A stretch of DNA of 64,000 bases, taken from the NCBI GenBank assembly GCA_964577145.1, contig CAZNXM010000004.1, positions 1,747 through 65,746 on the forward strand, read 5' to 3'. Below are positions 8,312-52,283 of this stretch, in pieces (within the stretch, counting starts at the first letter, position 1; the number at the start of each line of letters is the position of its first letter). Position numbers and translations under genes: made by a program. Under the pieces are notes generated by a model that was given only the letters and a program-made list of their open reading frames with translations, had not been told where the DNA came from and ran no database searches. Source of the DNA: an uncultured Candidatus Poseidoniales archaeon (GTDB taxonomy: Archaea; Thermoplasmatota; Poseidoniia; Poseidoniales; Poseidoniaceae).

Positions 8312-8740
8312 GTGATAATGATGGGAATGACAATGGCAGAACTAACTCAGGCGATTCAACAACATATCGACATGGAGATGGATTCAGAAGTAGCCTGTGG
8401 AATGGCAGAGCACGCTCTTGGCTTCTTTGGCTTCTACGACCGAATTATCGATAACGCTCTTGAGCCCACTGATAGGAACTTGTTTTACATGTTTCAAGAC
8501 TATGACCTTCTTACTACAGAATCAGAGGAGACCACCCTTTGGGATGGTCGAGAATGGAGGATTCACTATTGGCGCTTCAAGCCAGAACTGCGCGAGCGTG
8601 TAGAAGCATACATGTCTCGCAAGGTAAAGGAAGTCGAAATCGACCCATTTGGCGACATTTACACCGGTGGTGGCACGATTTGGACCCGAGAGGGCGACAA
8701 GCCTGTCAATCCCAATGCTTTCACCTCTGACCACTGGTGA
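8312..8740 (+). CDS. Hypothetical small cytoplasmic protein
   Basis: 142 aa ORF with no recognisable motif. Its stop overlaps the start region of the large surface-protein ORF. Confidence 0.4.
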   Translation: MIMMGMTMAELTQAIQQHIDMEMDSEVACGMAEHALGFFGFYDRIIDNALEPTDRNLFYMFQDYDLLTTESEETTLWDGREWRIHYWRFKPELRERVEAYMSRKVKEVEIDPFGDIYTGGGTIWTREGDKPVNPNAFTSDHW

Positions 8741-8793
8741 AACTGTACTTGGACCCACAAGTATTGAAATGGAGCAGCGCGAGCAATATCCAT

Positions 8794-11745
8794 ATGAAGA
8801 CGAGGAGCCTTATTCTCGCCGCGCTCTTTTTGACCTCGGTGGTTCCACTTTCCACCGCAGATGATCCAGTGGGAATTAGCATTCTCACCGATTGGGGAGA
8901 TGACCATGCTTACATAATCACAGGCGATGTGAATCTCTCTGATGTCAATGTCACACATTCACGTGATGGTTCATCTCTTGATATCGGTTTGATTTACGAT
9001 ACTACAGGAGCTGACCTTCGCCTAGAACTCAACTCCACTTTGGAATATGAGGACGTCATTACAGTCTCAGTAGGAGAATTTTCGCGAACAATAACTGTGG
9101 GATTGTGGAGCCAACCTTTGGCAGACCACGAGGTTACAACCACTACGCAATGGACGATGGACCAGCAATGGACAAATGAGTATGGTCAACAGAAATACAT
9201 CTTGACTTTCGATGGCAATGGTTGGCAAGCAAGAGAGGGGAATATCCTCGAAGCTTGGGAAATGGGTGATGGTGCTTTACAAATTACCAGCAATACTGAC
9301 GATGGTGGTATAATCCTAAATTTAATTCTTGAATCGGTTTGGAAGAACGAGACAATTGTAGATGGAATTCTTACCGGGCAGGTTTTCGATGCACGTGGTG
9401 CTGGTACTATCGGTGTCGAAAACAATGGCACAGATGGAGAGGTAACAATCGAGGGTCTAGTGAGTGATGCGTGGATTAATCGTTCTCTAATCAATGGAAT
9501 TGTCGATGAAAAATTCAGACTTGAGGCCAATGGCTCAATCGAGGTATTGAATAACGAAAGCGAAGAAGGAAATTTTTCTTTGACAGGAGTTCTCGCTGTA
9601 TTATTAGTCGAGACTCACGATATCAATGGCACTAGAGTTCTCGACCATCAAGAATTTGAGGCAACTGCAGATCTAGTAATCGAGGATAACGATACTAGAA
9701 TCGATATTTCGCTTGAAGTATTCCAGCAATTAGAGCGCTGGGAAAATGGAGTGATGGTCAATGCCTATAGTAATCTAGAGGGCCATGGCTCATTTGGATT
9801 AACCAGTTCAGATGAAAATTCAAGTGTAAATATCAATGGCACAATTTATGATTTCCACCAAGCCAGTGAAGATGGTTTGACGACAATCGACGACTTCCAT
9901 CTCGATGGAACGATTAGTGGAGATGCATCGGGAACCTTTGGAGTCGTGAGAAATATCGAAGCCGATGGACAACAAGCAAGTTGGAATGGTACAACATATG
10001 ATGTAATCGTCATTCACCAGGAAGATTGGTTCAATCTAACTGGGATTGCTGGACTACCTAATTCTGAGATTGGAGCAGGAGCGCATCACAACGAATCATG
10101 GGATTACATGGTTCCCCAAGAACACTGGGACAATCGTTCTATTCGCACCGTTTGGCAACAAACCGGCAATGACCCAAGTAGCGGCGATGAGGTTCACAAC
10201 AATTCCCCAATAGAGAAGCCACTAGAGCAACCAGATGTTGAAGAAATGCTTGGCGATGTAAATGTAGGGAGAGAGATGGGCTTTGTCCCTCTTGATGCAA
10301 AAGAAGGTGATGTATTCACTCTTGACCACCAAAACGGAATGGCTCTAACAGTAACATGTGGAATTCCAGAAGTTAAACCGATTGATGGTCACATGGTAGA
10401 TACTCTCGCTTGGACGGGAGTATATTCTTCAGGCGTAGATGGTAATGCAAGTGGTAATATCATCGTAGATGGGCCGTTATCTGGACTCAATGTTGAAATT
10501 GAAAGGATAATCATTGCACCATTTGGTGAAGACAACCAAACAGTAATTGTAACTGAGAATAAACAGATAGATCGTGTACTATCACCATCAATAATTTCAA
10601 TTCACGACAATACTCCACCAACGATAGTTAGCGCTACGCTCAGAGAGGGTGTAGTCACAGGTGAAGGTGGGCCAATAGCTCATCTTGAAGTCGTGGTTTC
10701 AGATCCCGATTTCAATGTTGAGAGCGTAACAGCTAACCTCTCTGGAATAGGCGGAGGAGTTGTGGAACTCTCAGATAAGGGGATGCAAGGAGATACAGAA
10801 ATTGGCGACGATATCTGGACCACTCAAGTTGTTGTAATGGGCTTAGAATTAGGAAATATTTCTATCATCATTTCTGCAGATGATACCTTTGAGTCGGCTG
10901 TAAACCTCAATACTACAATAGAAGTGAGAAATCAACCACCACGTCTTGCAGAAATCACAATAGTTCCTCATAAAATTGCACGCGGTGATATGCTCATTAT
11001 CAATGCAGAGGTAATTGATGGTCATGGAGTTGCAAGTGTGCAAATTGATTTACGCGATAAAGGAGGATCGCTCCAAGACCTTGAACGAATTGGTGAATTT
11101 TGGATTGGTGAAGTGGTAATTCCCGATGGAATGTCACCTGGAGACCATCTTCTAAAGGTCAGGATGGAAGATGACCTTGGTTCTTCAATTATCGTTACTA
11201 GAACTAAGTTTTCAGGCCTCCACCATGTCGAACTTTCCGAGGATGAGGATGTAAAGGTAGAGGTGCTAAACACCCCTCCACAAATCGATGTTGGAGAAAC
11301 AAGAGTGATTACTGTTGGCGATGAAGATAAGGTGTATACATTTACTGTAACCATAACCGATCACGATAATCTTGCATCTGCGAAAATAAAACTTGGAGCA
11401 TTCGCACCACCCGGCGATGAAGGCAAATGGCTCGTGTTAGAACCAAATGGCGATGATACATATTCAATCACGGTTTCAATTCGTTCAACTATCGTAATAG
11501 GAACCCACGAAGTTCTGGTTAGAGCCACTGATATCTATGGTGCCCAATCATCTGATGAATCACTAGCAGTAATTATTCAAGAAGAAGACAATTCTGTAAT
11601 CTCTGGTGATGGACCCGATACCAAATTAATTACCTATGCAGCTGTTGGAGGAATGATAATTCTTGCAATTGCTGGGGCTACGATTTACATCCGCCGCGGT
11701 AGTGATGGTGAAGGTGGCGGATTAGGCGGATTCGGTGAAGTCTGA
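8794..11745 (+). CDS. Very large secreted cell-surface protein (~980 aa) with C-terminal transmembrane anchor
   Basis: Signal peptide MKTRSLILAALFLTSVVPLSTADD (ORF opens at 8737). A long acidic, Thr/Asn/Gly-rich extracellular region. C-terminal TM LITYAAVGGMIILAIAGATIYIRRG followed by a Gly-rich tail. Confidence 0.7.
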   Translation: MKTRSLILAALFLTSVVPLSTADDPVGISILTDWGDDHAYIITGDVNLSDVNVTHSRDGSSLDIGLIYDTTGADLRLELNSTLEYEDVITVSVGEFSRTITVGLWSQPLADHEVTTTTQWTMDQQWTNEYGQQKYILTFDGNGWQAREGNILEAWEMGDGALQITSNTDDGGIILNLILESVWKNETIVDGILTGQVFDARGAGTIGVENNGTDGEVTIEGLVSDAWINRSLINGIVDEKFRLEANGSIEVLNNESEEGNFSLTGVLAVLLVETHDINGTRVLDHQEFEATADLVIEDNDTRIDISLEVFQQLERWENGVMVNAYSNLEGHGSFGLTSSDENSSVNINGTIYDFHQASEDGLTTIDDFHLDGTISGDASGTFGVVRNIEADGQQASWNGTTYDVIVIHQEDWFNLTGIAGLPNSEIGAGAHHNESWDYMVPQEHWDNRSIRTVWQQTGNDPSSGDEVHNNSPIEKPLEQPDVEEMLGDVNVGREMGFVPLDAKEGDVFTLDHQNGMALTVTCGIPEVKPIDGHMVDTLAWTGVYSSGVDGNASGNIIVDGPLSGLNVEIERIIIAPFGEDNQTVIVTENKQIDRVLSPSIISIHDNTPPTIVSATLREGVVTGEGGPIAHLEVVVSDPDFNVESVTANLSGIGGGVVELSDKGMQGDTEIGDDIWTTQVVVMGLELGNISIIISADDTFESAVNLNTTIEVRNQPPRLAEITIVPHKIARGDMLIINAEVIDGHGVASVQIDLRDKGGSLQDLERIGEFWIGEVVIPDGMSPGDHLLKVRMEDDLGSSIIVTRTKFSGLHHVELSEDEDVKVEVLNTPPQIDVGETRVITVGDEDKVYTFTVTITDHDNLASAKIKLGAFAPPGDEGKWLVLEPNGDDTYSITVSIRSTIVIGTHEVLVRATDIYGAQSSDESLAVIIQEEDNSVISGDGPDTKLITYAAVGGMIILAIAGATIYIRRGSDGEGGGLGGFGEV

Positions 11746-11817: not shown

Positions 11818-13488
11818 ATGCGGATAGGACCTATCCATATTCCGTTTACAAAAAAGGTTGATACTCCTTTCATATGGCTGAATAATCCAGATGCCATCAA
11901 AGTCGATGCAATGCCATCGAAGATTTCTTTCACTCCTGACCGGCCCTTTTCTATTGTTGGTTCCATTTTCACTATGGGATTCATTATTTTTGGACTAATA
12001 TTAGCGGGCATCCCTATAGGAATTATTGCAGCAGAAACCATTTACCCAATGCTCGATGAGGATAGTGATGAACCATGCTGGCCAGACCAAGATTCCGCGA
12101 TAATATTGTCAGACGGAATGGTATATTGTGACTTGGGGGGGTCGACTGAGGAATACACCGATTATCAGATTGCAGATGGCCATTACAGAATGACGATGTA
12201 TGGAGAAGAAGTCTACGAATACAGATGGTCAGAAGAAAATGGCACAATCACCTATGCATGGTTAGATGGAGATTACAATTACTATGAATGCTGGCAATAC
12301 ATTAGAGCCTCAGCCTTGCCAGAGAACTTTACAGGCGATGACCTCATTGTGAAATATGGCACAGAGGATGAATCTTATCCAGAATGGTGCAACGAGAGTC
12401 CGGATAATTCTAATATCGTGTATAGCGATACCAATTCAACCCCATTTGATGGTGAGTTATTGTACAATATTTATCCCAGTGACATGGCATATAGCATTGA
12501 AACAACTCAATTCATGGATGAAGGCAATATCCGTCACACATATCACGAGTTGGATTGGGACAATCAGATTTATTTTGAAGAAGTAGCTTTTCTTTCAATC
12601 TTTATGTTCGTTGGATTAGCAATAATGTTGGCCCCCCTGCTCACAAGAAAACGGATTTTAACCTTCGATACTATTGCCAACCAAGTGACTGAAGAATTCG
12701 CCAAATGGCCTAGGTTCGGCACCCACCGTGCAACAATACAGACGCCTCTGTCTGTGGACATTGTAAGAAATACTAGGGAAGTTCATCATAGTGAGAGTGG
12801 AGATGAACATTCTTCAGGAAGGACATGGACTACCTATCATGATGGAATCGACATCACTGTCGATTTAGTTGGCCAAGGTCCACAACCAGTCCTCTTCTTG
12901 GAGGGTAATGATGCAAGAAAGGAATACGAATCGATTCTTGGTCAACTATTCTTTGTATTGGGGCTCGATCTTTCTTCAGCAGAAGAGGCGATAGATAGCA
13001 CTGAAGAATTTGAAGAAGAAGCAATTTTGGGAGAACCTCGTCAAATAGAGTCGAAAGAAAACTTCCCTGGAATCATATTTATCGGAGGAGATGTGCCATA
13101 TACAGTTGGCCAAACTATTGCATATACTGCCGCTTGGATTCTAGGTATCTGGGTCATTTCAGGACTTGGTTACACCTTCCTTTCACCATTCTGTGGATTA
13201 GCAGCTTTAGTGACCATCTTACAATTCCGAGGGATAATGAAGACATTACGAGGGGAATCGATAATGGTAAAAAATGGTGAAACTATGACTTTCAGGGATA
13301 CAAAGGACCCCACTCGGTATGATGGAAAGATGGCCGAGATGATAGATGGCCTTGAACAGGCGGATTCTAAGTTTGAAGAAGCCACTACTGTGAAAATGGA
13401 TTGGATGCCATTTGAGAATCTGAAGATGGTTAGGCTTGGTCCGATTATCGGTGGAATAATCGCTCTTGTAATCTTCGTCTTATGGTGA
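11818..13488 (+). CDS. Polytopic membrane protein, function unknown
   Basis: 556 aa with several hydrophobic helices (FIIFGLILAGIPIGIIAA, IFMFVGLAIMLAPLL, AAWILGIWVISGLGYTFL, IIGGIIALVIFVLW). It lies directly downstream of the large surface protein. Confidence 0.5.
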   Translation: MRIGPIHIPFTKKVDTPFIWLNNPDAIKVDAMPSKISFTPDRPFSIVGSIFTMGFIIFGLILAGIPIGIIAAETIYPMLDEDSDEPCWPDQDSAIILSDGMVYCDLGGSTEEYTDYQIADGHYRMTMYGEEVYEYRWSEENGTITYAWLDGDYNYYECWQYIRASALPENFTGDDLIVKYGTEDESYPEWCNESPDNSNIVYSDTNSTPFDGELLYNIYPSDMAYSIETTQFMDEGNIRHTYHELDWDNQIYFEEVAFLSIFMFVGLAIMLAPLLTRKRILTFDTIANQVTEEFAKWPRFGTHRATIQTPLSVDIVRNTREVHHSESGDEHSSGRTWTTYHDGIDITVDLVGQGPQPVLFLEGNDARKEYESILGQLFFVLGLDLSSAEEAIDSTEEFEEEAILGEPRQIESKENFPGIIFIGGDVPYTVGQTIAYTAAWILGIWVISGLGYTFLSPFCGLAALVTILQFRGIMKTLRGESIMVKNGETMTFRDTKDPTRYDGKMAEMIDGLEQADSKFEEATTVKMDWMPFENLKMVRLGPIIGGIIALVIFVLW

Positions 13489-23184: not shown

Positions 23185-23973
23185 ATGCCGCTTATGTCAG
23201 ATGCTGAGGATGCACTTGTGGTTGCAAAAGACCTCGGTAAAAGGTACGGAGAATTCATTGCTTTGCATCCTTTGGATGTGAAGGTATCTTCAGGAGAATT
23301 TTTTGGCGTTTTTGGTCCAAACGGCGCTGGCAAATCGACCTTTATCAAACTTCTAACAGGGCAACTAAGACCAAGTATTGGCGGTGTAGAAGTATTGGGC
23401 ATCAATGCTGCAAGAAACCCTCAGAAATTAAAAGCCAATATTGGAATTGTGCCAGAATCAGAATCCCCTCCATCCTATCTTACCCCAACCGAATTCCTTC
23501 ATTTTGTGTGTAAATTACGTGCTGTGGAAGACCTTGAGGCTAAGGTAGAGCACTGGATGGACTGGTTTGGCCTCGATGAGAAGAAAGACACGATGTGTAA
23601 GGACCTTTCAAAGGGCCAGCGACAGAAGGTAATGCTCGCCGCAGCATTCATCCATGAACCTCGTCTATTATTCCTCGATGAACCATTCGCGAATCTCGAT
23701 CCAATCTACCAACGAAAATGCAGACAATGGCTCCTCGATCACGTAGCAAATGGTGGGACAATTTTCCTATGTTCTCATGTACTTGAAATGGCAGAAAGAA
23801 TGTGCAATAGAATGGCTATTATCAATAACGGGAAGGTTCTTGCTGCAGGAACCGTAATCGATATGAAATTGAATAGCGAAGAAACCCTCGAGGATGTATT
23901 CATCCGCTTAGTTGGACATTCGATTGAAGAAGCAGAACGCCGAAGCGATGAGGGACTAAACGAGGAGGAGTGA
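23185..23973 (+). CDS. ABC transporter ATP-binding protein
   Basis: Walker A GPNGAGKST, ABC signature LSKGQRQKV, Walker B LLFLDEPFANLD. Confidence 0.85.
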   Translation: MPLMSDAEDALVVAKDLGKRYGEFIALHPLDVKVSSGEFFGVFGPNGAGKSTFIKLLTGQLRPSIGGVEVLGINAARNPQKLKANIGIVPESESPPSYLTPTEFLHFVCKLRAVEDLEAKVEHWMDWFGLDEKKDTMCKDLSKGQRQKVMLAAAFIHEPRLLFLDEPFANLDPIYQRKCRQWLLDHVANGGTIFLCSHVLEMAERMCNRMAIINNGKVLAAGTVIDMKLNSEETLEDVFIRLVGHSIEEAERRSDEGLNEEE

Positions 23974-25673
23974 TTATGTCAATCAGCTTCTCCAGCCGTG
24001 ACTGGTCTGAGGCAGAAGCCTCGACAGTAGCGGTGACCTTCGATAGTGCAGGCGGTGGAAAACACCTCCATAATCCGCTAACGGGATGGGCTGCTTTCAG
24101 TGCTACATTCAAGGTAATGTTCATCGAAGAATATCGTGAGAATCTTGACTTTGCAAAAAAACGCCGTATCATGATGTTTCCACTCATGGTTGCATTAGTG
24201 ACGATGGTTGCGACAATTGGACTGCAATTTTTGGTAGGAGAAGGTGCTGCTCAAGACACCGAATCAATATCAAATTCCAAAGCCTTCACTTGGCAAGAGA
24301 TGCGATTTGCCCTCCATTTGCCTCTATTGATGTTCAGTCTTGGAATGGGTTCGTTCGCATTCCTTGGAAGGGAGAGAGTACTTGCACGTACCGGGACAAA
24401 GAACTACCTTCTTGCAAGTCCAGCCTTGCAACCATTAACCAACTCAACCGCACATTTCGCATATTATTGTAAGGATTTATCATATTACGTAATGCTAATT
24501 CTAACTCCAGTAATTGGTGGAATGGCAGTAGGGATTTCTCTAGAGTGGTGGACCGATGTTAGTACACCTCTTGAGTGGTCCAGTCTTCCACGCACTTGGA
24601 TTGCTATGACGGTAACTCTTGCCGAAGGATTGGCCCTATCTTTCATTGCCTCATCATTATGGCTTCTTGGAGGGTGGGTAAGTCGTATTACTCCAATAGC
24701 GATAATCGGACTTGGAACAATCGTAGGCCTTGGATATGTACCTAGACAAACTCTCTTGTGGGGTATGGCAACACAAGCACCAGGTGGTGAAATCTGGGCA
24801 ATTCCAGCAGTCGTACTTTCGCTTTGTGCAGCGTATTTTGCAGCGCAATTAGTTCGAGATGATTTTGAAGTAAAGGTCGTTGCAAAGAAAGAATTATTCA
24901 TGCCAATTTGGAACAAATTACGCTTCCTTGGAAAGGGAACAACGCGCCTTCTAGTTGCTAAGGAAGCGGTTGATTTAGTTCGTTCAGGCTCACTAAAGAA
25001 AATGACTGTGAGTTATTCAGTTCCTCTAATAGTACTCTTATTGATGGCCTGGTTGGTCGATTTTGCAGAAGCACCAATCCCAATCAATCTACTCAGTTAT
25101 GCGCCCTTCCTCGGCTTTTTCGGATTCAATTTTTACTCATGGCTTACGGCCCTTGATTCACCTGAGCACATGAATGGTCTTCCGTTATCAGTTCCACAAT
25201 TGATCAGGGCGAAAGTTGTGGTTTATTTCCTCGCAACATCATGGATTTCTATTCTCTTCGTTTGCCTCATGGCATGGAAACTCGACGAATGGGCAGTCCT
25301 TCCAATCGCACTGATAGTAATGATTGCTAACAGTATCTACATTGTTTCATTGACTGCATTCTTGATGGGACTAGCTCCCAATAAGGCGATATTTGATGCA
25401 AAAATAATGACATGGTTTTGGATTGGTACGGTCATACCTCTTCTAGCACTATTCCTTCTATCCTTCACTCAAGGTGATGTTTCATTCTATGAGAATTGGA
25501 TGAGTGCGGTACAAGACGGTGGATTGGATGCGGAAGCGGTTGAATTTACTAGCGAAAAGATGGAATCAGGATTCAAGGGTATTCTTGGCGTCAGCGTAGG
25601 ACTGGTGGCGGCTTCAATTCTATTGATGAAACTACTCGACCGCAAATGGGGAAGGGCAGAATTCAACAACTGA
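23970..25673 (+). CDS. Large polytopic membrane protein, probable ABC-2-type permease partner
   Basis: 567 aa with at least 10 hydrophobic helices. It overlaps the ABC ATPase stop by 4 nt. Confidence 0.5.
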   Translation: MIMSISFSSRDWSEAEASTVAVTFDSAGGGKHLHNPLTGWAAFSATFKVMFIEEYRENLDFAKKRRIMMFPLMVALVTMVATIGLQFLVGEGAAQDTESISNSKAFTWQEMRFALHLPLLMFSLGMGSFAFLGRERVLARTGTKNYLLASPALQPLTNSTAHFAYYCKDLSYYVMLILTPVIGGMAVGISLEWWTDVSTPLEWSSLPRTWIAMTVTLAEGLALSFIASSLWLLGGWVSRITPIAIIGLGTIVGLGYVPRQTLLWGMATQAPGGEIWAIPAVVLSLCAAYFAAQLVRDDFEVKVVAKKELFMPIWNKLRFLGKGTTRLLVAKEAVDLVRSGSLKKMTVSYSVPLIVLLLMAWLVDFAEAPIPINLLSYAPFLGFFGFNFYSWLTALDSPEHMNGLPLSVPQLIRAKVVVYFLATSWISILFVCLMAWKLDEWAVLPIALIVMIANSIYIVSLTAFLMGLAPNKAIFDAKIMTWFWIGTVIPLLALFLLSFTQGDVSFYENWMSAVQDGGLDAEAVEFTSEKMESGFKGILGVSVGLVAASILLMKLLDRKWGRAEFNN

Positions 25674-25691
25674 ACCCAACAGCCGAGTAGC

Positions 25692-26237
25692 ATGGGGCTG
25701 GTAATCGCAGTTTGCGGAATGCCAGCAAGTGGCAAAGGAGAGTTTGCTTCCATACTTGCTTCCAAAGGGATACCTGTTCGCTCCATGGGTGATATGGTGA
25801 GGGCCGAAGTTGCCTCACTTGGAATCGAGGAAGGGCCAAATGTGTTTGGCGAAATAGCAACTGCTCTGCGTGCAGAGCACGGTGATGACATACTTGCAGT
25901 TCGTTTGACTTCAGCCGTTGATTCATTATTGGAGGATCATCCTATCGTACTAATCGAAGGAATGAGAGGTACTGCAGAGAAAGCAGTATTCGTTGAACAT
26001 TGGGGGTCTTCATTCATTTCAGTGGCGATAACCGCGGATACCGAAACAAGATTTCAAAGAGTAATTTCCCGCGGTCGTTCTGAAGATGGAGACAGGTCAA
26101 CTTTCCAACTTAGAGATGAGAGAGAAAATGGATGGGGTTTGGAACAAATAATTTCTGAAGCGGAATTCACATTCCAAAATAACCGAGATGTAGCCGAACT
26201 CACACTTCTTGCTTCGGATTGGCTAACATCCCTGTGA
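25692..26237 (+). CDS. P-loop nucleotide kinase-like protein (adenylate/dephospho-CoA kinase fold; resembles archaeal UPF0200 family)
   Basis: N-terminal P-loop VIAVCGMPASGKGEF and a kinase-like ~180 aa length. Confidence 0.5.
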   Translation: MGLVIAVCGMPASGKGEFASILASKGIPVRSMGDMVRAEVASLGIEEGPNVFGEIATALRAEHGDDILAVRLTSAVDSLLEDHPIVLIEGMRGTAEKAVFVEHWGSSFISVAITADTETRFQRVISRGRSEDGDRSTFQLRDERENGWGLEQIISEAEFTFQNNRDVAELTLLASDWLTSL

Positions 26238-26315: not shown

Positions 26316-27845
26316 GTGTACATGGCGAGAAAGGGAGGAGGAGGCCAGAAGCGCCAACGAGGCCAGCAACGAGCGCAATATGATGAGCTAGACAAATACC
26401 CTGTCATGCCCCCTCATGCCTTTGCGCGAATCGTTCGTGACAAGCGCTCTCTAAACATCGTATACCAAATTATTGAACCCCCCCTCAATAAGAAAGAAAT
26501 GGAGTGGCGAGATGAATTACTAGATATTTTCATCCGTTCACTAACCGCAAATATCGAGGAGATAGATGCCGACCCCATCGCCTACCTTAGAACAGCAATG
26601 GACAAGGTCATCAAAGCCTATGGTATGAAGATAAATAAGAAATCCAAGTCCAAACTATTCTATTATCTTAGAAGAGACATGGTAGGCTATGGAAAGATGG
26701 ACGTTCTGATGAACGATGCTAACGTTGAAGACGTATCGTGCGATGGAACGGGAGTACCGATTTTCGCTTATCATAGGAAATTTGAGTCTGTTGAAACTAC
26801 ATGTTCTTGGGATACTGATGAAGAACTCGAAAGTTACGTGATTAAATTGGCGCAGCGGTGTGGTAAACACATTTCAGTTGCAGACCCTCTGCTCGATGCT
26901 ACATTGATGGATGGTTCGCGAATTGTCATGAAGCTCGGCCGAGAGGTTTCTACTAGAGGTTCAGCATTTTGTATTCGACGATTCAAGGACGATCCGTTCT
27001 CACCTTGTGATATTATTGCATTCCGAACCCTTTCTTCTTTGATGGGCGCATACCTGTGGATTTCATTCCAGAATGAAGTTCCAATGCTATTCGTAGGCGG
27101 TACTGCATCAGGTAAGACTACCACGCTTAACGCAATGTGTATTTTCATACCTTGGCAGATGAAGATTGTTAGTATCGAGTCAACTCGTGAAGTAAACATT
27201 CCACAACCAAACTGGGTCCCAGGACTAACCCGGCAAGGATTCGGTGGAGAATCATCTGAGGGTGAAATCGGTGAGTTCGAACTTCTAAAGGCAGCTCTTC
27301 GTGAGCGACCTGAGTACATTATCGTGGGAGAGATTCGTGGTGCAGAAGCATATGTTCTATTCCAAGCAATGGCAACAGGTCACTGTGCTTATTCGACAGT
27401 TCACGCCGACTCAGTACCTTCTCTAGTCCACCGCCTAGAGAACAAACCGATTGATATCCCACGTGTTCTTCTTCCTGCACTGGAAGCCTGTGTGATTCAA
27501 ATTCAGACCAGAATTAATGGACGACGTGTTCGACGTTCAAAGCAAATTGTCGAAATTGTAGGTATAGATCCAAACTCAATGGAAGTCATTACGAACGAAG
27601 TTTTCCGATGGAATGTTGCAAATGATGATTTCATATTCTCTGGAAAGTCATATGTTTTGGAGAAGATTATGGTTAAGATCAATTATAGTCAAGAGGACAT
27701 GAGAAGGGAACTTAGAACCCGTAAGCGTATTCTCGAATGGATGGTGCTCAATGACATTCGCAAGGCCGATCAGGTCAGCCAAATTATCACAGAGTACTAT
27801 GTTAGGCCACACGAGATTCTCGCAAGAGTTGATGGAATGCGCTGA
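26316..27845 (+). CDS. FlaI/ArlI-like type IV filament assembly ATPase (archaeal secretion ATPase superfamily)
   Basis: Walker A VGGTASGKTTTLNAMCIF, Walker B/Asp box region, FlaI-like N-terminal domain (IVYQIIEPPL). Length 509 aa. Confidence 0.85.
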   Translation: MYMARKGGGGQKRQRGQQRAQYDELDKYPVMPPHAFARIVRDKRSLNIVYQIIEPPLNKKEMEWRDELLDIFIRSLTANIEEIDADPIAYLRTAMDKVIKAYGMKINKKSKSKLFYYLRRDMVGYGKMDVLMNDANVEDVSCDGTGVPIFAYHRKFESVETTCSWDTDEELESYVIKLAQRCGKHISVADPLLDATLMDGSRIVMKLGREVSTRGSAFCIRRFKDDPFSPCDIIAFRTLSSLMGAYLWISFQNEVPMLFVGGTASGKTTTLNAMCIFIPWQMKIVSIESTREVNIPQPNWVPGLTRQGFGGESSEGEIGEFELLKAALRERPEYIIVGEIRGAEAYVLFQAMATGHCAYSTVHADSVPSLVHRLENKPIDIPRVLLPALEACVIQIQTRINGRRVRRSKQIVEIVGIDPNSMEVITNEVFRWNVANDDFIFSGKSYVLEKIMVKINYSQEDMRRELRTRKRILEWMVLNDIRKADQVSQIITEYYVRPHEILARVDGMR

Positions 27846-27884: not shown

Positions 27885-28904
27885 ATGGAGTTAACCGCTT
27901 GGCAGAAAATTTGTCACCGCTTATTAGGTGGCCTTTTCAAGAAGCGAGCTCGTGAAGACACAGAACTTGGTGACAACCTAGTAAAGGGGAATATGCCAAT
28001 AATGCCAGAGGTATTTTTGGCTCAAAATTTCATGGTCACTATTCTAGTACTGATTTTTTGTATCCTAATCAATTTAGCATTCTTTTTCCCCGTTATCGGA
28101 TTCATAGATTATTATGAGTCATTACCTGACGAATCCACGGCAGAAGCCTGTTTCGTTTGGGAATATTGGAATGAGGACTTAGTTGATACCACATTACCTG
28201 CAAATGGATGTCCATACTTTGCCTACCTTGAATTTCCTGATTGGGTAGAAACACTGATTCCGATAATTTTCGGTCCGGTTATTCCATATTTTGTTTTCAA
28301 ATATTTGAAGAAAGGGGCTTCAAGGTCAGCACATGCAAGAGGGGTAGCTCTTGAGAAATACTTGCCTTATGCAGCATCATATACTGCAGCGATGGCTGCT
28401 GCAAATGCAACCCCGCACAAGATTTTCAGGTCACTAGCAATGAATGGAGATATCTATGGCGAGATTGCTTATGATTCAGCTATGATTTATCGCGACGTGA
28501 GCCTACTAGGATTTGATTTGCTTACTGCGATGAAAATGTCGGTTGACCGTGCAGCATCCCCTTGGATGACAGAATTCTTCCAGGGTATGGTTGGAACGCT
28601 AACAGCCGGAGGCTCGCTAAAGTTGTATTTCCTAAATCGTGCTGAGCACTATATGCGTGAGAACCGAACCAGATTGCATGAATTCTTAGAATCTTTAGCA
28701 ATGTTGGCTGAATCTTATGTTGTGGTTGCAGTTGCAATGCCTCTTTTCCTAATTGTCATGCTCGTGATTATGTTCTGGGTTAGCGGTGCTGGAGCACAAA
28801 TGAGTGAGGGTACATTGTATCTGGTTGTGATGTTGGTATTACCATTAATCCACGTGATGTTTGCATTCTTAGTATGGTCGTCCAGTGAAGAACAAAAAAT
28901 GTGA
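27885..28904 (+). CDS. FlaJ/ArlJ-like (TadB/C, T2SSF-domain) membrane platform protein, N-terminal half
   Basis: One T2SSF-like cytoplasmic domain (LPYAASYTAAMAAANATP...LLGFDLLTAMKMSVDRAASPW...LKLYFLNRAEHYMRE) flanked by TM helices. Confidence 0.65.
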   Translation: MELTAWQKICHRLLGGLFKKRAREDTELGDNLVKGNMPIMPEVFLAQNFMVTILVLIFCILINLAFFFPVIGFIDYYESLPDESTAEACFVWEYWNEDLVDTTLPANGCPYFAYLEFPDWVETLIPIIFGPVIPYFVFKYLKKGASRSAHARGVALEKYLPYAASYTAAMAAANATPHKIFRSLAMNGDIYGEIAYDSAMIYRDVSLLGFDLLTAMKMSVDRAASPWMTEFFQGMVGTLTAGGSLKLYFLNRAEHYMRENRTRLHEFLESLAMLAESYVVVAVAMPLFLIVMLVIMFWVSGAGAQMSEGTLYLVVMLVLPLIHVMFAFLVWSSSEEQKM

Positions 28905-28916
28905 GGAGGTGAGGAT

Positions 28917-30434
28917 ATGGCGCGCAAGAAGAAGAACAAAATCATCGTCGATCTCGATCTTCCAAAGGATGATTCAACAATGACAAAACTCTATGCGATT
29001 TTGATGGTTACAGGCTTCATCGGCTTGGGTTGTTTTGGATTTTGGCTAACTAATTCTCACTTTACAACTTCACCAAATGGTCAACCATTATTCGTTAATC
29101 TAGCCTGTGGTTTTGATTCAACTGTAGAACTAACTCCGACATTAAATGAAACCTGCCCCATGTTGGAGGATACTCCAACTCCAATTATCTATGAAACTGA
29201 AGAGCCATGGCTTGAGTTTAAAGAGCAGGGTCAGTATTTCGATGTACCTGGACGTAATATTTCTGAATTAAATGGCGCCCCTCCTCCAGTCCAACCATTT
29301 ACGGGCACATGCAATATCGATTCATCTCTACCGGCTGATTATTCATTTAGAATCTACCACACCGATGGCCAAATAGTCGCAAGGCATGATGGTAATAGCC
29401 ACGATGAGAATGACAAGTGTTACCTCCATGTAGAGAATATGGAAGTGGCGAATATGTATTCAGTTGTAATTGTTTCAAATGAAGAAATTAATTCTGCAAC
29501 ATATCGCTTTGAGATGGATTACTTTGATGGCACTCCGGAATATATCAATAACAAATCACTTTGGATTGGTCCAGAAGTAAATCTGGGTGGAATGAGTTTG
29601 AGGCCTACTATTTTCCTCAACTTCTTTGGTTTTGGATTCTTCATGTGTTTCTGGCCGGCTTCTTTCTATTGGGACCGTGTAAAAACAAGAATTAATGATA
29701 TGGAAGAGAAATTCCCTGATTTCTTACGAGATCTTGCAGAGTATTGGAAGGGGGGTTTGTCAATGACTGTAGCGGTTCAAACGTTGGCGAAATCTGAATA
29801 CGGTGCCTTGAACCATGAAGTAAAGAAAATGAGTGACCAATTAAGTTGGGGTGTTGCATTTTCCGATGTCATTCACATGTTTGCAGAACGTGTCGGTACT
29901 CCTCTTGTCAGGCGTGCAATCTCTTTGATTTCTGAGGCTAACCGTGCTGGAGGAAAGATTTCTGATATTCTTGTTACTGCAGCAAATGATAGCCGTGAAA
30001 TTAAGTTCCTTGAGGGCGAACGAGTACGCTCTATTTCATCATACATTTCAGTTATCTGGACTTCATATGGTGTATTCTTAGGAGTTATTGTCGTTCTTGC
30101 TAAGGTTTTCATTCCTGCGATTGCGGGTTCAAATTCTGAACCTAGTGATGAAGGAGATGGTGGCGGTCAAGCTATTGGAAACATGGTTATCAGAAATATC
30201 GAGCCTCTGTTTTTCCTGACGATTTTCTATTATGGTGTTACGATGCAAGCATTGGGTAATGGAAATATGGCTGGACTGATGGCTACTGGAAGATTTAGCA
30301 GTGGAATGAAGCATGCTGGGCTGATGATTCTTCTTTCCTTACTATGTTTCAATTTCATCGTTTACACCCCCGACCTCATAGGAATTACAACTTTGCCAGG
30401 CTTCAATGTCTCAGCTGGTGTTTTCAGACCATGA
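28917..30434 (+). CDS. FlaJ/ArlJ-like membrane platform protein, C-terminal half with ~200 aa extracytoplasmic insertion
   Basis: Preceded by RBS GGAGGTGAGGAT. N-terminal TM, then a Cys-containing hydrophilic insert, then a T2SSF-like domain (LRDLAEYWKGGLSMTVAVQTLAKSEYGALNHEVKKM...LISEANRAGGKISDIL) and C-terminal TM helices. Confidence 0.65.
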   Translation: MARKKKNKIIVDLDLPKDDSTMTKLYAILMVTGFIGLGCFGFWLTNSHFTTSPNGQPLFVNLACGFDSTVELTPTLNETCPMLEDTPTPIIYETEEPWLEFKEQGQYFDVPGRNISELNGAPPPVQPFTGTCNIDSSLPADYSFRIYHTDGQIVARHDGNSHDENDKCYLHVENMEVANMYSVVIVSNEEINSATYRFEMDYFDGTPEYINNKSLWIGPEVNLGGMSLRPTIFLNFFGFGFFMCFWPASFYWDRVKTRINDMEEKFPDFLRDLAEYWKGGLSMTVAVQTLAKSEYGALNHEVKKMSDQLSWGVAFSDVIHMFAERVGTPLVRRAISLISEANRAGGKISDILVTAANDSREIKFLEGERVRSISSYISVIWTSYGVFLGVIVVLAKVFIPAIAGSNSEPSDEGDGGGQAIGNMVIRNIEPLFFLTIFYYGVTMQALGNGNMAGLMATGRFSSGMKHAGLMILLSLLCFNFIVYTPDLIGITTLPGFNVSAGVFRP

Positions 30435-30447
30435 GGTGGCAGAGTTG

Positions 30448-30888
30448 TACGATGACGACTCAGGACAGATTCACATCCTTGAGATGTTGACATTATTCTG
30501 GCTCTTTTTCATGTCAGCAACTTTTCTAATTCAAATCCAGGTGCCAGATTCTCCATCACAGTCTATTGATGCAAGTATGGAGTTCGCAGGACAAGATGCC
30601 ATCCGATATGGCCTTGGTATTGACTCTCAGGGAGGCGAATATGACTCTAGACTTGCTGAATTACTTTCCAGTGGTAACGAGGACGCAGCATGCGAACTAA
30701 TCCAAGGAGCGATAACAAGTGGTTACGAAGGAAATTGTTGGCTAGCCCGTGATTCAGGAACTAGTCACCCTGCAGGAGAAGTAGGGACTCCTGCTGGCCG
30801 TACAATCACTACACATTCACTAGTTGCAGTCGATGACCATCTGTGGACGGTCTCACTTGATGTGTGGACTCGAGGAGGTGGCGAGTGA
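30448..30888 (+). CDS. Small pilin-like protein with class-III-like signal peptide (acidic leader + GQ + hydrophobic helix)
   Basis: ...YDDDSGQIHILEMLTLFWLFFMSATFLIQ. RBS-like gaggtgg at 30436-30442. The ORF opens at 30406 overlapping the upstream gene; a GTG/TTG start is likely, so coordinates are approximate. Confidence 0.35.
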   Translation, partial: YDDDSGQIHILEMLTLFWLFFMSATFLIQIQVPDSPSQSIDASMEFAGQDAIRYGLGIDSQGGEYDSRLAELLSSGNEDAACELIQGAITSGYEGNCWLARDSGTSHPAGEVGTPAGRTITTHSLVAVDDHLWTVSLDVWTRGGGE

Positions 30889-31319
30889 TGCTATCTGAAA
30901 GGGATGAAGAGGGTCAAATGCTCTTGGCAACAGGCATAGTACTGATGATGTCACTTCTTTCGATGGCCATTTTTGGAGTAAAGATGGCAGGAATTGCAAT
31001 GCCACACGACCCTGCGGGTGATACTACAATCACCGCTTCAGGAGAAGTGGTGGAATCATTGCCTGCATTGACTTACGATAGAGCCCAAATCTGGTATGAT
31101 GGTGGCTTATCTGAGTTAGAGAGTGTAGAGAAAGCGATGGCCTCGTTACACGACGACATCTTACACCATGGTGAGATTAGAGGAGTAGAACTCAAATTAC
31201 TCGACATTACAGTAAGTGAGTTGGACGGTATTATCACTGTAAATTGTGAATTGGGGGCTGCTGATAGAAATGCAATGCTTGCAAATCCAATCGAGTTTAC
31301 TATTGATCTCGATGTTTAA
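30888..31319 (+). CDS. Small pilin-like / FlaF-FlaG-like protein with class-III-like signal peptide
   Basis: MLSERDEEGQMLLATGIVLMMSLLSMAIFG, then a ~110 aa soluble domain. Its start ATG overlaps the upstream stop (TGATG), and an RBS gaggaggtg lies 8 nt upstream. Confidence 0.45.
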   Translation: MLSERDEEGQMLLATGIVLMMSLLSMAIFGVKMAGIAMPHDPAGDTTITASGEVVESLPALTYDRAQIWYDGGLSELESVEKAMASLHDDILHHGEIRGVELKLLDITVSELDGIITVNCELGAADRNAMLANPIEFTIDLDV

Positions 31320-45774: not shown

Positions 45775-48084
45775 TTGGTGACAATGGTGTCTGGGACTCG
45801 TATTCGTTCAATTCATCAGAGGAGGATCCTCGATTGGTTAGCGGACGGAGGAGGCACTGTTTCAGAAGTTTCTAATGCACTATCGATGCGAATGCCACAT
45901 GCTTCAGCCGCATTGAAAAAGTTGAGGGAATCGGGCGACGTCGTACGTGACGACCTAAATATTCGAGGCTCGAGATTGCGTCTTTCATCACAAGGCCTGG
46001 CTAGACTTGAGTCCGATGGACTCGATCGTCTAGAGGCGTCAGTTCGCTGGCCCCCACCTCCCGGAGCGGCCGGAATTGTTCTTGCGAGAGATGGCTCTAT
46101 GCTGTTACTTGGTTATGCATCAAAGCCTCAAGGACCCTTGATTGGGCTCCCAGATAGACCAATGGACGATGATTCTGGAGTGGTCGAAAATTCCAATGGA
46201 AACAAAGGGGGCGGGGAGTATTGGCGTTGGGGCGTCATCAGAGGAGATGGCCCTGTTTGGTGGGATTTAGAAAATGGACGCCGTGCAGAAGCTCCCGAAG
46301 ACACCTCTCCCTTGACCTTGGCAGCGTGGATGGAGCGACCAAAAATAATGGGTGTTGTCAGAGTTCGTCTCTTAGATGATACGAGAGAATGGCCCTTAGG
46401 TGTAGGAAGTTGGTTCTCTTCTCTACCTCAAGGAATTTGGCCAGACTTACCTCAGCAATTATGCGATGGCGATGTAGCATTTGGCCGAGCGGGTAATTCC
46501 GGTCCTTTAGTAAGGCCGAGGGATGGAGTTCATGCATTATTGGGCAAAAGAGATGATCAAGCTCTCGTGTTAAGAGCGGTAGCAAAAGGTGCATTGTGTA
46601 TTGCAGATTTCGATTTGCTTGGGCGTGAAGGTGCCCCTATAGCATTTGCAATTCTCAAGTATTGGCTTCGAGAAGTCCATCCCCGCCTTTCTAATGAGAC
46701 AATTTCAGAGAGAATGGCCAAGATAAAGTCAGACCTCATCGAGGGAATATCTACAGCGTCAACTCGTCGTTTATTAGCCGACTTCCCCGGCAGAGAATGG
46801 GCCGAAGAAGGTGTAATGGATACACGTTCACTCTCACTAAGAGCAGCACGCGCAATGTTGGCTTATGCTCTAGAGTCATCCAATCAACCGATTGTTGTCC
46901 ATTGGCGCTGGCCTATTGAACGAGGTGTATTGGACCAACTCGTATCAGATAGCCGTTGCCGAATGGTAATCTGTGAGGGGACTGCACTTGAATTGCCAAT
47001 GCGCTTGACATCGATGGGGGTCCATGGAAAGTTCAACCTAGAATTACCAGATAGAGTACAGATTCCAGTAAGTCTTGATGGAGATCTCTCTAGTGAGATG
47101 CCAGAGAATTGGGAAATGCCTGCAAATCCATCCGAAATAGTGCGAGGGGATTTGACCCCTCCGAGAAGTAAACCCCTCAATCAAAGAGAAGCGATGTGGG
47201 TTGCTTGCAACCTTACTTCAGATGGTAATGATACTTGGGCTGACATGGTAGAGGAGGAATATCCGCTTGCTGCATGGATTGCTACTTCACCTGAACAGAG
47301 AGGTTCGAGATGGAGGCGTATTTCCAAAAAGATTGATTCGATTTGGGCTAGCCTTGCAAATCTAGAATCTTTTGATATTGAACAATTATGTGATTTAGCT
47401 CTTGATAATACTGATGCATATGAATCACTTGTGGAGCGAGTTCGCTCTAGTCCGATGATAATGCTTGATCAAGTACACCTCATTCCTCATCCTGCAATGG
47501 CTAGTGCGTTATTATCTTCTACACATTGGCTTTCAGCATCCACAATGGAGTCAGTAGATGTTGCTTGTTCAGCATTTCTTGAAGACCCCATTGATATCGA
47601 TGGAGTAATGATGGCATGTTGGGATTCAGAACTCAAAGAGAAGGTTGCTTTAGCATGCCCTCATCACCATGCGCTTTCAGTTGGAGTACAAGACAGAGAT
47701 GCGATTATGGGAATAATTACTGCTGTTAATCATTCACTATGGAAAGAGAATGCTCTGGAATGGGTCCGCTTATTTCTCTCTTCATCTCAAGGAAGAACGA
47801 TGCTAAGCGAACTGGAGATACCATGGGCTGTATTATTATGTGATTCTGTACTATTGAGCGAGGACCTGAAATTAACTCATCACATGAAGAGTGGGCCTGG
47901 TCACGACTCATTGCTGGATGTACTCGATGCATTAGATGCTAGAGAAAGAGGAATTGCACCACCAAAAGGTAGAACTCATCCAATGGTGGGTTGGCTATTC
48001 CAAACAACTGTACCTCATGTCCCAATTCATTGTGAAGGCAACATGGAGATACACATTGCTCTACACCGACGCCTTCATGCATGA
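45775..48084 (+). CDS. Large (769 aa) hypothetical protein with N-terminal winged-helix DNA-binding-like domain
   Basis: N-terminal RRILDWLADGGGTVSEVSNALSMRMPHASAALKKLRESGDVVRD (MarR/ArsR-like wHTH). The remaining ~650 aa carry no recognisable motif. Confidence 0.55.
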   Translation: MVTMVSGTRIRSIHQRRILDWLADGGGTVSEVSNALSMRMPHASAALKKLRESGDVVRDDLNIRGSRLRLSSQGLARLESDGLDRLEASVRWPPPPGAAGIVLARDGSMLLLGYASKPQGPLIGLPDRPMDDDSGVVENSNGNKGGGEYWRWGVIRGDGPVWWDLENGRRAEAPEDTSPLTLAAWMERPKIMGVVRVRLLDDTREWPLGVGSWFSSLPQGIWPDLPQQLCDGDVAFGRAGNSGPLVRPRDGVHALLGKRDDQALVLRAVAKGALCIADFDLLGREGAPIAFAILKYWLREVHPRLSNETISERMAKIKSDLIEGISTASTRRLLADFPGREWAEEGVMDTRSLSLRAARAMLAYALESSNQPIVVHWRWPIERGVLDQLVSDSRCRMVICEGTALELPMRLTSMGVHGKFNLELPDRVQIPVSLDGDLSSEMPENWEMPANPSEIVRGDLTPPRSKPLNQREAMWVACNLTSDGNDTWADMVEEEYPLAAWIATSPEQRGSRWRRISKKIDSIWASLANLESFDIEQLCDLALDNTDAYESLVERVRSSPMIMLDQVHLIPHPAMASALLSSTHWLSASTMESVDVACSAFLEDPIDIDGVMMACWDSELKEKVALACPHHHALSVGVQDRDAIMGIITAVNHSLWKENALEWVRLFLSSSQGRTMLSELEIPWAVLLCDSVLLSEDLKLTHHMKSGPGHDSLLDVLDALDARERGIAPPKGRTHPMVGWLFQTTVPHVPIHCEGNMEIHIALHRRLHA

Positions 48085-51041: not shown

Positions 51042-52283
51042 TCAAAGGCGGCTTTGGTGCCGGAACCTATTTGCAAAGATTTCCGAGAATACTGGTTCGG
51101 CCTTTGCCATCACATCGATTGGGTCGATGTTATTGGGGATACAGGAATTAATCTCCTTGGATCTACCATGCCTTCCTCTTGAAATTACTTTAGCTGTAAT
51201 TAAGCCTAGCATGTCGAGATTATTGATAATGCCAGAGATTCTTCTTGCAGTTAGGAATTGCTGGCCAACTAAATTGCAAGCCTGTTTGTAAATGTGATAA
51301 ACTTCACCAGTCTGAATATTGCGAAGTCCATTACTCTCATTGATGAGAACAGATGCAAGAACCATCTTCTGTTGTGTGGGAAGAGTACGAATCACTGGTG
51401 TAACTTGGTCGGATTCAATTTGAGCCTGAGCAATCCTAACATGTTGTTGCTCTACAATGCCAACACCTTCTTGCTCAGCCTTTTCGGTAGAAACACGAAG
51501 TAAATCAAGTGCGCAACGGGCATCTCCGTTTTCTTGTGCTGCAAGTGCAGCGCACAATTCTATGACACCGTCTCCAATCGCATCTGGAGTGATTGCATTT
51601 TGTGCCCTTCCTCTAAGAATATCTTGAAGTTGCTCAGCATTATATGGATTGAATATGATATCTTCCTGGCCAAGCCTACTTCTTACTCGTGGATCGAGGA
51701 AGTCAGTAAATTTGAGATCGTTTGAGATGCCGATAACACATGCCCTAGCATTTTTTAATTCAGCATTCAAGTTTGTCAAATTGTAAAGAAGGTCATCTCC
51801 AGCCTTCTTTACAAGGTGGTCGATTTCGTCAAGTACGATGACATAAACTCCCCCGCGTTCATCCATCCGTCTCACTAATTCTGAAAACACCCGGTCAGTT
51901 GGCCAGCCAGTAAATGGGATATCAGCCTCTTCATGAGCTTCAAGAAGTGTGTTTCCAAGATGGGATAATACTCGGTATTGAGTATCGATTTGTCGGCAGT
52001 TAACCAAAACTGGATGAACAACTCTTCCAATTTGTTCACCCTTTCGCAGGAGTTGGTCACAAACATATCTGGTGACAGCGGTTTTACCGGCTCCGGTCAC
52101 GCCGTAGAGAATCATATTCGAAGGAATGTGGCCCTTAAGGGCCTCGACTAAATTGAAACTTAAAGTCTCAACTTCTGCATCACGATGAGGCAGTCTTTCA
52201 GGGGTGTGAGTGTGGCGCAGTGTCTCCTTTTGGATGAAAAGCGTCCTTTGTGTGAGAATGCCATCGAAAATATTTGACGACAT
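51042..52283 (-). CDS. orc1: Orc1/Cdc6 replication initiator (AAA+ with C-terminal winged helix)
   Basis: Walker A LYGVTGAGKTAVTRYV, Walker B VIVLDEIDHL, sensor regions, and a C-terminal wH domain. RBS GAGGAG upstream. Confidence 0.9.
   Translation of the reverse strand: MSSNIFDGILTQRTLFIQKETLRHTHTPERLPHRDAEVETLSFNLVEALKGHIPSNMILYGVTGAGKTAVTRYVCDQLLRKGEQIGRVVHPVLVNCRQIDTQYRVLSHLGNTLLEAHEEADIPFTGWPTDRVFSELVRRMDERGGVYVIVLDEIDHLVKKAGDDLLYNLTNLNAELKNARACVIGISNDLKFTDFLDPRVRSRLGQEDIIFNPYNAEQLQDILRGRAQNAITPDAIGDGVIELCAALAAQENGDARCALDLLRVSTEKAEQEGVGIVEQQHVRIAQAQIESDQVTPVIRTLPTQQKMVLASVLINESNGLRNIQTGEVYHIYKQACNLVGQQFLTARRISGIINNLDMLGLITAKVISRGRHGRSKEINSCIPNNIDPIDVMAKAEPVFSEIFANRFRHQSRL

Follow-up and report, generated by a model that had tools for sequence, protein, structure and literature searches.

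The open reading frames ORF1 and ORF2 are two small, tandem genes on the plus strand of a 64,000-nucleotide stretch of DNA (the window) from contig CAZNXM010000004.1 of an uncultured Candidatus Poseidoniales archaeon. They form the 3′ end of a five-gene operon, in which they follow a secretion ATPase and two half-platform proteins (table 1). The successive intergenic gaps are 39, 12, 10 and −1 nt, and a convergent kinase-like gene ends directly past ORF2. In profile searches with Pfam and NCBIfam models, the first half-platform protein aligns with the N-terminal half of the ArlJ/UpsF platform models and the second with their C-terminal half. Each of the two small proteins opens with a short leader that ends in Gly, followed by Gln and a 21-residue hydrophobic helix. 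We think it probable, if by no means certain, that ORF1 and ORF2 are two unrelated pilin-like proteins, each carrying a class III signal peptide and belonging to a type IV pilus-like machine that extends throughout the Poseidoniales (marine group II archaea).

Table 1. The operon and the features of ORF1 and ORF2 (positions are those of the window; leaders, cleavage sites and helices are predictions).
Feature	Position	Strand	Remarks
PilB/GspE-type secretion ATPase	26316–27845	+	operon gene 1; Pfam T2SSE, E 1e-25
Half-platform protein 1 (TadB/EpdJ-like)	27885–28904	+	one T2SSF domain, Pfam E 9e-12
Half-platform protein 2	28917–30434	+	one T2SSF domain, Pfam E 3e-12, residues 269–394
Shine–Dalgarno-like GAGGTGG for ORF1	30433–30439	+	overlaps platform stop codon; 5 nt before TTG 30445
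ORF1	30445–30888	+	147 aa from TTG start
ORF1 leader MYDDDSG	30445–30465	+	predicted cleavage after Gly 30463–30465, before Gln 30466–30468
ORF1 hydrophobic helix IHILEMLTLFWLFFMSATFLI	30469–30531	+	conserved His at +3, Glu at +6; nearly invariant in family
ORF1 Cys83 (30691–30693) to Cys98 (30736–30738)	30691–30738	+	both Cys invariant in alignment
Shine–Dalgarno GGAGGTG for ORF2	30874–30880	+	in ORF1 3′ end; 7 nt before ATG 30888
TGATG stop/start overlap	30886–30890	+	ORF1 stop overlaps ORF2 ATG by one base; translational coupling
ORF2	30888–31319	+	143 aa
ORF2 leader MLSERDEEG	30888–30914	+	predicted cleavage after Gly 30912–30914, before Gln 30915–30917
ORF2 hydrophobic helix MLLATGIVLMMSLLSMAIFGV	30918–30980	+	QMLLAxGxVL..L.SM invariant down to 30% overall identity

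How general is this arrangement? We compared the window with 83 related loci; the counts given below refer to these 83 loci and to 84 ORF2 sequences, or to 167 sequences of the two families in total. The order platform–ORF1–ORF2 is kept in all 83, and the complete order ATPase–platform–platform–ORF1–ORF2 is present wherever the contig is long enough. The flanking genes, too, are mostly conserved around the operon, and the gene order is retained in relatives whose ORF2 is only about 30% identical, one of them on a 3.0 Mb contig. The one-base overlap between the ORF1 stop and the ORF2 ATG recurs in 79/83 loci, and a Shine–Dalgarno-like motif lies 5′ of the ORF2 start in 82/83. The preliminary description of this DNA had reported tandem, coupled genes, the second starting in a TGATG stop–start overlap behind a ribosome-binding site. 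Both elements are where it placed them, and with hundreds of homologues the reality of the pair is far beyond chance.

At E ≤ 1e-3, ORF1 has 267 homologues and ORF2 has 1025. The ORF2 family occurs in 241 species-representative genomes and has 65 clusters at 50% identity, which shows it to be a narrow one. All the named homologues are 'hypothetical proteins' from metagenome-assembled genomes labelled Poseidoniales, Poseidoniaceae or 'Euryarchaeota archaeon', and neither ORF1 nor ORF2 could be assigned to any Pfam or NCBIfam family by profile search. Among the 80 genome loci listed, all are of Poseidoniales type except one. That one (CAXQWT010000002.1) is an archaeal ORF1–ORF2 contig deposited in a genome labelled Salipiger bermudensis, a bacterium, and is probably a mis-binned contaminant. 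Across 69 species-level loci, the median identity to the window is 92% for the ATPase, 66% and 62% for platform halves 1 and 2, 60% for ORF1, 56% for ORF2 and 58–59% for the flanking AAA18 and AAA33-like genes. The ATPase never falls below 85.5%, as against the 56–66% of the platform and neighbouring genes. Such extreme conservation suggests that the machine has a core rather than an accessory function.

Where does ORF1 begin? The preliminary description chose ATG 30406, which would give a leader of 20 residues. The start is most likely the TTG codon of table 1, 10 nt past the stop of the platform gene, and the leader then has 7 residues. This placement follows from the start positions of the family, the upstream stops of relatives, the spacing of the Shine–Dalgarno-like motif and the lengths of the homologues. 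A start codon (ATG, GTG or TTG) stands exactly 7 codons ahead of the conserved Gln in 76/83 ORF1 loci, with a Shine–Dalgarno-like motif 5′ of it in 62/76. Two relatives (L005 and L006) carry an in-frame stop directly 5′ of the TTG, and the homologues are mostly 145–147 aa long. When the window is set beside its closest relative, codons change freely 5′ of the TTG but are conserved 3′ of it. ATG 30406 and a second candidate, GTG 30436, were both rejected on the family start positions, the upstream stops and the placement of the Shine–Dalgarno-like motif. With these starts, both proteins begin upstream of the Gly/Ala–Gln junction and not downstream of it, the case in which there would be no leader at all.

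Two irregular starts deserve mention. The public gene call of the closest relative (protein P0121) uses an upstream ATG and has 160 aa; the family comparison indicates that this start is mis-called. L060 and one other locus lack any ATG, GTG or TTG on the way from the upstream in-frame stop to the conserved Gln. The codon at −7 is ACG; translation may start there non-canonically, or the sequence may be in error.

In the window the N-termini read DDSGQ-IHILEMLTLFWLFFMSATFLI for ORF1 and DEEGQ-MLLATGIVLMMSLLSMAIFG for ORF2, exactly the peptides that the preliminary description had quoted. Counting from the Gln (+1), translation starts at −7 in the ORF1 family and mostly at −10 in the ORF2 family, so that leader length is fixed at 7 residues in the one and 9–10 in the other. 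Position −6 of ORF1 holds Arg, Gln or Lys; ORF2 usually has Arg at −9 and Lys or Arg at −5. Asp occupies −4 in 79 of the 83 ORF1 sequences; this position is variable in ORF2 (Asp in 44 of 84). An acidic residue stands at −3 throughout ORF1 (83/83) and in 80/84 ORF2 sequences. Position −2 is variable: E, N, D, S, T, V, G or Y in ORF1, never Lys or Arg, and K, A, R, E, S, G, Q or D in ORF2. Position −1 is Ala (75) or Gly (8) in ORF1 and Gly (43) or Ala (41) in ORF2. Thus −1 is only ever Gly or Ala (167/167), with all four synonymous codons used for each, and +1 is Gln at every locus of both families. From there ORF1 continues as Q-I/V-H-I-L-E-M-L-T-L-F-W-L-F-F-M and ORF2 as Q-M-L-L-A-T/A-G-x-V-L. 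The hydrophobic helix is the best-conserved segment of either protein.

Together, the freedom at −2, the restriction of −1 to Gly/Ala, the invariant +1, the short leader of fixed length and a helix better conserved than anything else have the look of a prepilin peptidase site. Gly, Ala or Ser at −1 is universally required by prepilin peptidases, and Gln at +1 is a hallmark of EppA substrates that PibD tolerates also (PMC4371748). Leaders as short as 3 residues are cleaved by PibD, and as short as 5 by ArlK (PMC10117864). Of the properties expected of class III signal peptides, we find the short leader with a hydrophobic domain of some 20 residues right behind it, the Gly/Ala/Ser at −1 and the filament ATPase and platform genes in the same operon; we do not find a positively charged leader or a uniformly charged −2. 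The comparison supports a predicted archaeal class III (prepilin-type) signal peptide layout in both proteins, and the resemblance that the preliminary description had seen extends across both families.

Is the machine an archaellum? The flaI/flaJ-like genes of marine group II have been read as 'flagella' for adhesion (PMC6461757, PMC6864105), and the preliminary description offered, besides minor pilins for the adjacent filament locus, FlaF/FlaG-like stators. FlaF and FlaG (ArlF/ArlG) are likewise small single-pass proteins with a pilin- or archaellin-like hydrophobic N-terminus, encoded beside an ATPase and a platform gene. The ATPase of the operon, however, scores 399 bits against the NCBIfam FlaI model, under the 550-bit cut-off. 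Its nearest solved relative is the GspE of Archaeoglobus fulgidus (2OAP; 400 bits, E 1e-118), ahead of FlaI (264 bits) and CpaF, and it also matches TadA and CpaF models and structures. Since the ATPase falls below the FlaI cut-off and lies nearer to GspE, we conclude on these profile comparisons that the machine is pilus-type, of the PilB/GspE kind, and not an archaellum. The operon contains no archaellin or FlaH (ArlH) gene, and the 64-kb window yielded no other class III-type candidate. Genomes of marine group IIa (MGIIa) are reported to carry archaellum loci, and the flaB/H/I/J loci are set apart there from 'additional' flaJ, flaI and tadC genes (PMC6864105). FlaF is a beta-sandwich encoded in an archaellum operon (PMC4425475), whereas ORF1 is predicted to consist of helices and one four-stranded sheet. 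No archaellin, FlaF or FlaG model matched either protein at E ≤ 1. That ORF1 and ORF2 should be archaellum stators we regard as scarcely credible. What stands of the earlier proposal is the pilin-like layout at the end of a type IV filament operon; the stators do not.

What might the mature domains look like? The AlphaFold2 model of ORF1 (pLDDT 75.8) has a helix at 5–28, a break at an invariant VPD, a second helix at 37–58, two short helices and a four-stranded antiparallel sheet. In the model, this order of elements is that of a pilin or pseudopilin. ORF1 relatives have exactly two Cys in 83/83 cases, and a disulfide between Cys83 and Cys98 is probable. The invariant pair fits such a bond and argues for an extracellular head. 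A recurrent N-X-S/T sequon, single and present in 67/84 relatives, argues the same for ORF2, which also has an invariant D..HG..RG motif. Comparison of the two families with hhalign found no relationship between them, from which we take it that ORF1 and ORF2 are not paralogues. The ORF1 model had no Foldseek match below E 0.02 in the PDB, and profile searches of both families against PDB sequences gave no credible match, nor did any hit to an unrelated cytoplasmic family appear, an outcome for which the preliminary description had allowed.

A number of observations weigh against pilin-like subunits, and the first of these concern the charge of the leader. A positively charged leader is usual. 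ORF1 leaders are net negative in 80/83 cases and contain no Lys or Arg in 23/83. In the window both leaders have a side-chain net charge of −3, as acidic as the preliminary description had them. ORF2 relatives mostly have 2–3 Lys/Arg in the leader and a net charge of 0 or +1. The acidic leader is thus a family trait of ORF1 and, in ORF2, a peculiarity of the lineage of the window. Position −2 is uncharged in 38/83 ORF1 sequences (about 46%) and 31/84 ORF2 sequences (about 37%). It is Glu or Asp in 44/83 ORF1 sequences, the window copy having Ser, and Lys, Arg, Glu or Asp in 53/84 ORF2 sequences, the window copy having Glu. With His at +3, none of the 83 ORF1 sequences fits a reconstructed FlaFind-like core pattern; 53/84 ORF2 relatives fit it.

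How unusual are such leaders? Lys or Arg is typical at the charged −2 (PMC3387779, PMC4371748), and a positive residue there is said to be specific to archaeal sites (PMC3387779). On the other hand, −2 and −3 of archaellins are described as charged, 'acidic or basic' (PMC10117864), and a published table gives Asp at −2 for Haloferax PilA1-3 (PMC4371748, Table 1). Proteins from haloarchaeal pilus loci read ..ERAQ.., ..DRAQ.. or ..DDRG.., that is, with Asp or Glu at −3 and then Arg-Ala/Gly. The earlier statement that known leaders carry Lys or Arg before the cleavage site was therefore too strong. By these comparisons an acidic −3 is ordinary; what is unusual is the frequent lack of any basic residue in ORF1 leaders and the uncharged −2.

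The remaining objections concern family matches, the peptidase and the heads. Like the archaellum models, the pilin, Class_IIIsignal and TadE models gave no match to either protein at E ≤ 1. Pilin_N (PF07790) and archaellin (PF01917) were also silent at E ≤ 1 over the window proteins and 54 relatives, while a haloarchaeal Pilin_N protein used as positive control scored E 9e-23. No prepilin peptidase came to light in the window or close to it: the six frames of the window contain no GxGD[..]K-type motif, and neither its multi-pass membrane open reading frames nor the flanking DNA, about 10 kb on either side, gave an A24 match. Archaellum assembly needs such a peptidase, and the archaellum loci reported from MGIIa genomes (PMC6864105) are indirect evidence for one. 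The ORF2 model, with pLDDT 54 and a low-confidence helix at 7–33, cannot be relied on. The heads of solved archaeal pilins are rich in beta-strand (PMC12448462), and an alpha/beta head such as that modelled for ORF1 would be atypical for an archaeal pilin; the fold is nearer to sensor-type extracytoplasmic alpha/beta domains. Both heads carry invariant polar motifs, GxExNCW in ORF1 and HHGExRG in ORF2, and both proteins evolve no faster than the platform. In these two respects they are unlike a typical exposed major pilin.

Might the pair, then, not be filament subunits at all? ORF1 and ORF2 could be uncleaved single-pass membrane proteins that join in a 1:1 complex at the base of the machine, outside the membrane, and serve in anchoring or alignment, as ArlF/ArlG, PilN/PilO or GspL/GspM do. 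Strictly conserved translational coupling implies equimolar synthesis, and the genes close an operon of machinery whose platform they match in evolutionary rate. The polar motifs, the sensor-like fold of ORF1 and the failure to find a peptidase gene nearby would suit such a complex, as would acidic leaders with an uncharged −2, which depart from known peptidase substrates. It leaves unexplained, however, why −1 is Gly or Ala and +1 Gln in 167/167 sequences while −2 is free, why the leaders are short and of fixed length, and why the N-termini resemble those of haloarchaeal pilus-locus proteins with R-A/G-Q junctions. We consider the anchored complex possible but not probable.

The charges on either side of the helix, counted from the sequences, leave the topology undecided, which is a further point against a pilin-like orientation. 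The net-negative ORF1 leaders and the Arg that directly follows the helix (FLIRV) in many relatives would, by the positive-inside rule, weakly favour an inverted arrangement, in which the N-terminus faces outward and the C-terminal domains lie in the cytoplasm, where their role would be to bind or control the ATPase or platform. For ORF1, however, the two sides of the helix differ in charge by about zero, and the rule is not decisive. Most ORF2 relatives have 2–3 Lys/Arg in the leader, the Cys pair of ORF1 and the sequon of ORF2 fit an extracellular head, and the conserved Gly/Ala–Gln junction would have no explanation. An inverted topology thus seems highly unlikely.

If ORF1 and ORF2 are indeed pilin-like subunits, how would they be used? 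The precursors would insert into the membrane with the short leader (7 residues in ORF1, 9–10 in ORF2) in the cytoplasm. A prepilin peptidase of the PibD/ArlK/EppA type would then cut after the Gly or Ala at −1 and expose the Gln, which may cyclise to pyroglutamate. The 21-residue helix would anchor the mature protein, with its alpha/beta head outside the cell and that of ORF1 probably disulfide-bonded. Finally, the split platform and the ATPase would pull the subunits out to build a helical fibre or else a short pseudopilus.

The pair closes the operon, is translationally coupled, evolves at the pace of the platform and has invariant polar motifs. These features suggest subunits of low abundance in a 1:1 ratio, as in a priming or minor-pilin complex or in a heteromeric base. 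The pair may instead be the sole major pilins. The layout of the operon also resembles that of Ups, whose two terminal genes encode the fibre. A small major pilin of the Flp/EpdE kind was sought in the window and none was found. A bolder proposal is that of a minimal, order-wide and highly conserved machine whose only dedicated subunits are two unrelated, 1:1 pilin-like proteins, with alpha/beta heads nearer to those of bacterial pilins and pseudopilins than to the beta-rich ones of solved archaeal pilins, acidic leaders poor in Lys and Arg and an unconstrained −2. We think this unlikely. Were it true, the peptidase would read [D/E]-x-[G/A]↓Q and not a basic −2, and the fibre would be a heteromeric fibre or pseudopilus of a type undescribed in archaea.

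Several features around the pair are worth recording. In the second half-platform protein, a long segment (residues about 45–225) separates the first membrane helix from the T2SSF domain; it has no family match and four cysteines, at 64, 80, 132 and 168. It probably lies outside the cytoplasm, and exposed domains are uncommon in platform proteins. Upstream of the operon (23185–26237) lie an ABC ATPase gene, a gene for a permease-like protein of 567 aa (11 membrane segments predicted, no family match) and an AAA_18 kinase-like gene. The same trio precedes the pilus operon in 60/83 related loci, which may be mere synteny of streamlined genomes or may reflect a functional link. About 9 kb 3′ of the ORF2 homologue of locus L088 (19411–20438 on a 3.0 Mb ENA contig) is encoded a 4372-aa protein with cupredoxin/copper-binding matches and a weak archaeal Pilin_N match; it could be a giant pilin-anchored surface protein. 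Farther off, an open reading frame at 51042–52283 on the minus strand apparently matches a replication initiator of Cdc6/Orc1 type, 413 aa long, that is annotated in the overlapping contig L095, so a replication origin may sit about 20 kb from the pilus operon. Three long open reading frames, at 8737–11745, 11818–13488 and 45775–48084 (1002, 556 and 769 aa), had no Pfam match at the thresholds used.

Why does the pair matter? In the surface ocean no archaea are more abundant than those of marine group II, and none of these is in culture. One of their flaI/flaJ-like loci, read until now as 'flagella', is shown here to be a separate pilus-type operon of the PilB/GspE kind. Two widespread 'hypothetical proteins' acquire a likely role, as pilin-like subunits of that machine. 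Both would escape motif tools that expect a basic −2. Should the acidic leaders really be cleaved, archaeal prepilin peptidases would have a wider range of substrates than is now known.

How does the operon compare with known systems? The Epd system of Methanococcus maripaludis comprises the EppA-processed pilins EpdA–E, the ATPase EpdL and the TadC-like EpdJ/EpdK. In common with it, our operon has one ATPase and two platform genes, encodes pilin-like proteins together with the machinery and has Gln at +1 after Gly or Ala, as in the KGQ/RAQ sites of Epd (PMC4371748 Table 1; also PMC4858521 section 9). Unlike the Epd pilins, ORF1 and ORF2 have no Class_IIIsignal/DUF361 match at E ≤ 1; in place of the Epd Glu at +5, ORF1 has Glu at +6 and ORF2 has none; and −2 of ORF1 is not Lys or Arg. 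The locus contains no EppA gene, and it has two pilin-like genes where Epd has five or more, with no small stand-alone major pilin identified.

Bacterial Tad systems have a split platform (TadB/TadC), the ATPase TadA/CpaF and the pseudopilins TadE and TadF. Both have the split platform, and both encode alongside the machinery two pilin-like proteins about 150 aa in length. The archaeal operon differs in having no TadE-like match, no Flp-type pilin, TadV or TadZ, and another cleavage motif. Split platforms are known besides from Epd, from many euryarchaeal 'clade 2' loci (PMC4858521) and from the CdiP pilus of Cuniculiplasma divulgatum, a member of the Thermoplasmatales and so of the same phylum, where the halves are CdiPFa and CdiPFb (PMC12448462). 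CdiP differs in having two ATPases, pilins encoded about 500 kb away and a CdiPB head that is mainly beta-strand, and no genes like ORF1 or ORF2 are described for it (PMC12448462). The Ups operon of Sulfolobus (upsX-E-F-A-B) likewise has an ATPase, a platform and two adjacent pilin genes that end the operon (PMC4371748). UpsA and UpsB, however, are paralogues of each other with Lys-Ala at the junction, and the platform there is in one piece; ORF1 and ORF2 are not detectably related to each other.

The haloarchaeal loci of PilB4 type encode an ATPase, TadC, DUF7287, DUF7288, a DUF7261-like protein, DUF7266 and DUF7289. The best annotated relatives of our ATPase in a plasmid collection are haloarchaeal, at 41–45% identity. 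Small genes with R-A/G-Q junctions that follow the platform gene, and Asp or Glu at −3, are common to the two. The haloarchaeal order DUF7288 (RAQAHTLE) then DUF7261-like (ERAQMFLIGG) is moreover the order of ORF1 (AQIHILE) then ORF2 (RAQMLLATG), and the DUF7261-like gene begins ..ERAQMFLIGG.. where ORF2 relatives have ..DERAQMLLATG... By contrast, the haloarchaeal loci have a five-gene set, a single unsplit platform, an enlarged ATPase and an Arg nearly fixed at −2.

Are these likenesses homology? Pfam DUF7261 is weakly matched by 13/15 ORF2 relatives (best E 9e-5, 23.1 bits, profile positions 3–81), below the gathering threshold of 27 bits that applies to DUF7261 and DUF7262 alike; the ORF2 of the window reaches 11.9 bits. 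Aligned with hhalign, the ORF2 family and the haloarchaeal DUF7261-like proteins give E 7e-4 over 80 columns. DUF7262 is weakly matched over its whole length by 7/39 ORF1 relatives (best E 0.003, 18.4 bits, again below threshold) and not by the ORF1 of the window, while the similarity of ORF1 to DUF7288 is limited to the N-terminal 26 residues. A tblastn search of the plasmids with the most DUF7261-like relative found nothing, as did a homologue search from the N-terminus of the haloarchaeal DUF7261-like protein, and none of the six haloarchaeal plasmid loci in the collection has DUF7262. We treat the similarities to DUF7261, DUF7262 and DUF7288 as leads to remote homology and not as membership. 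On all these comparisons, ORF1 and ORF2 are new, previously unannotated families, so far seen only in Poseidoniales-type genomes; the kind is known and the signal motif a variant, which makes for a useful annotation and not a new kind of system.

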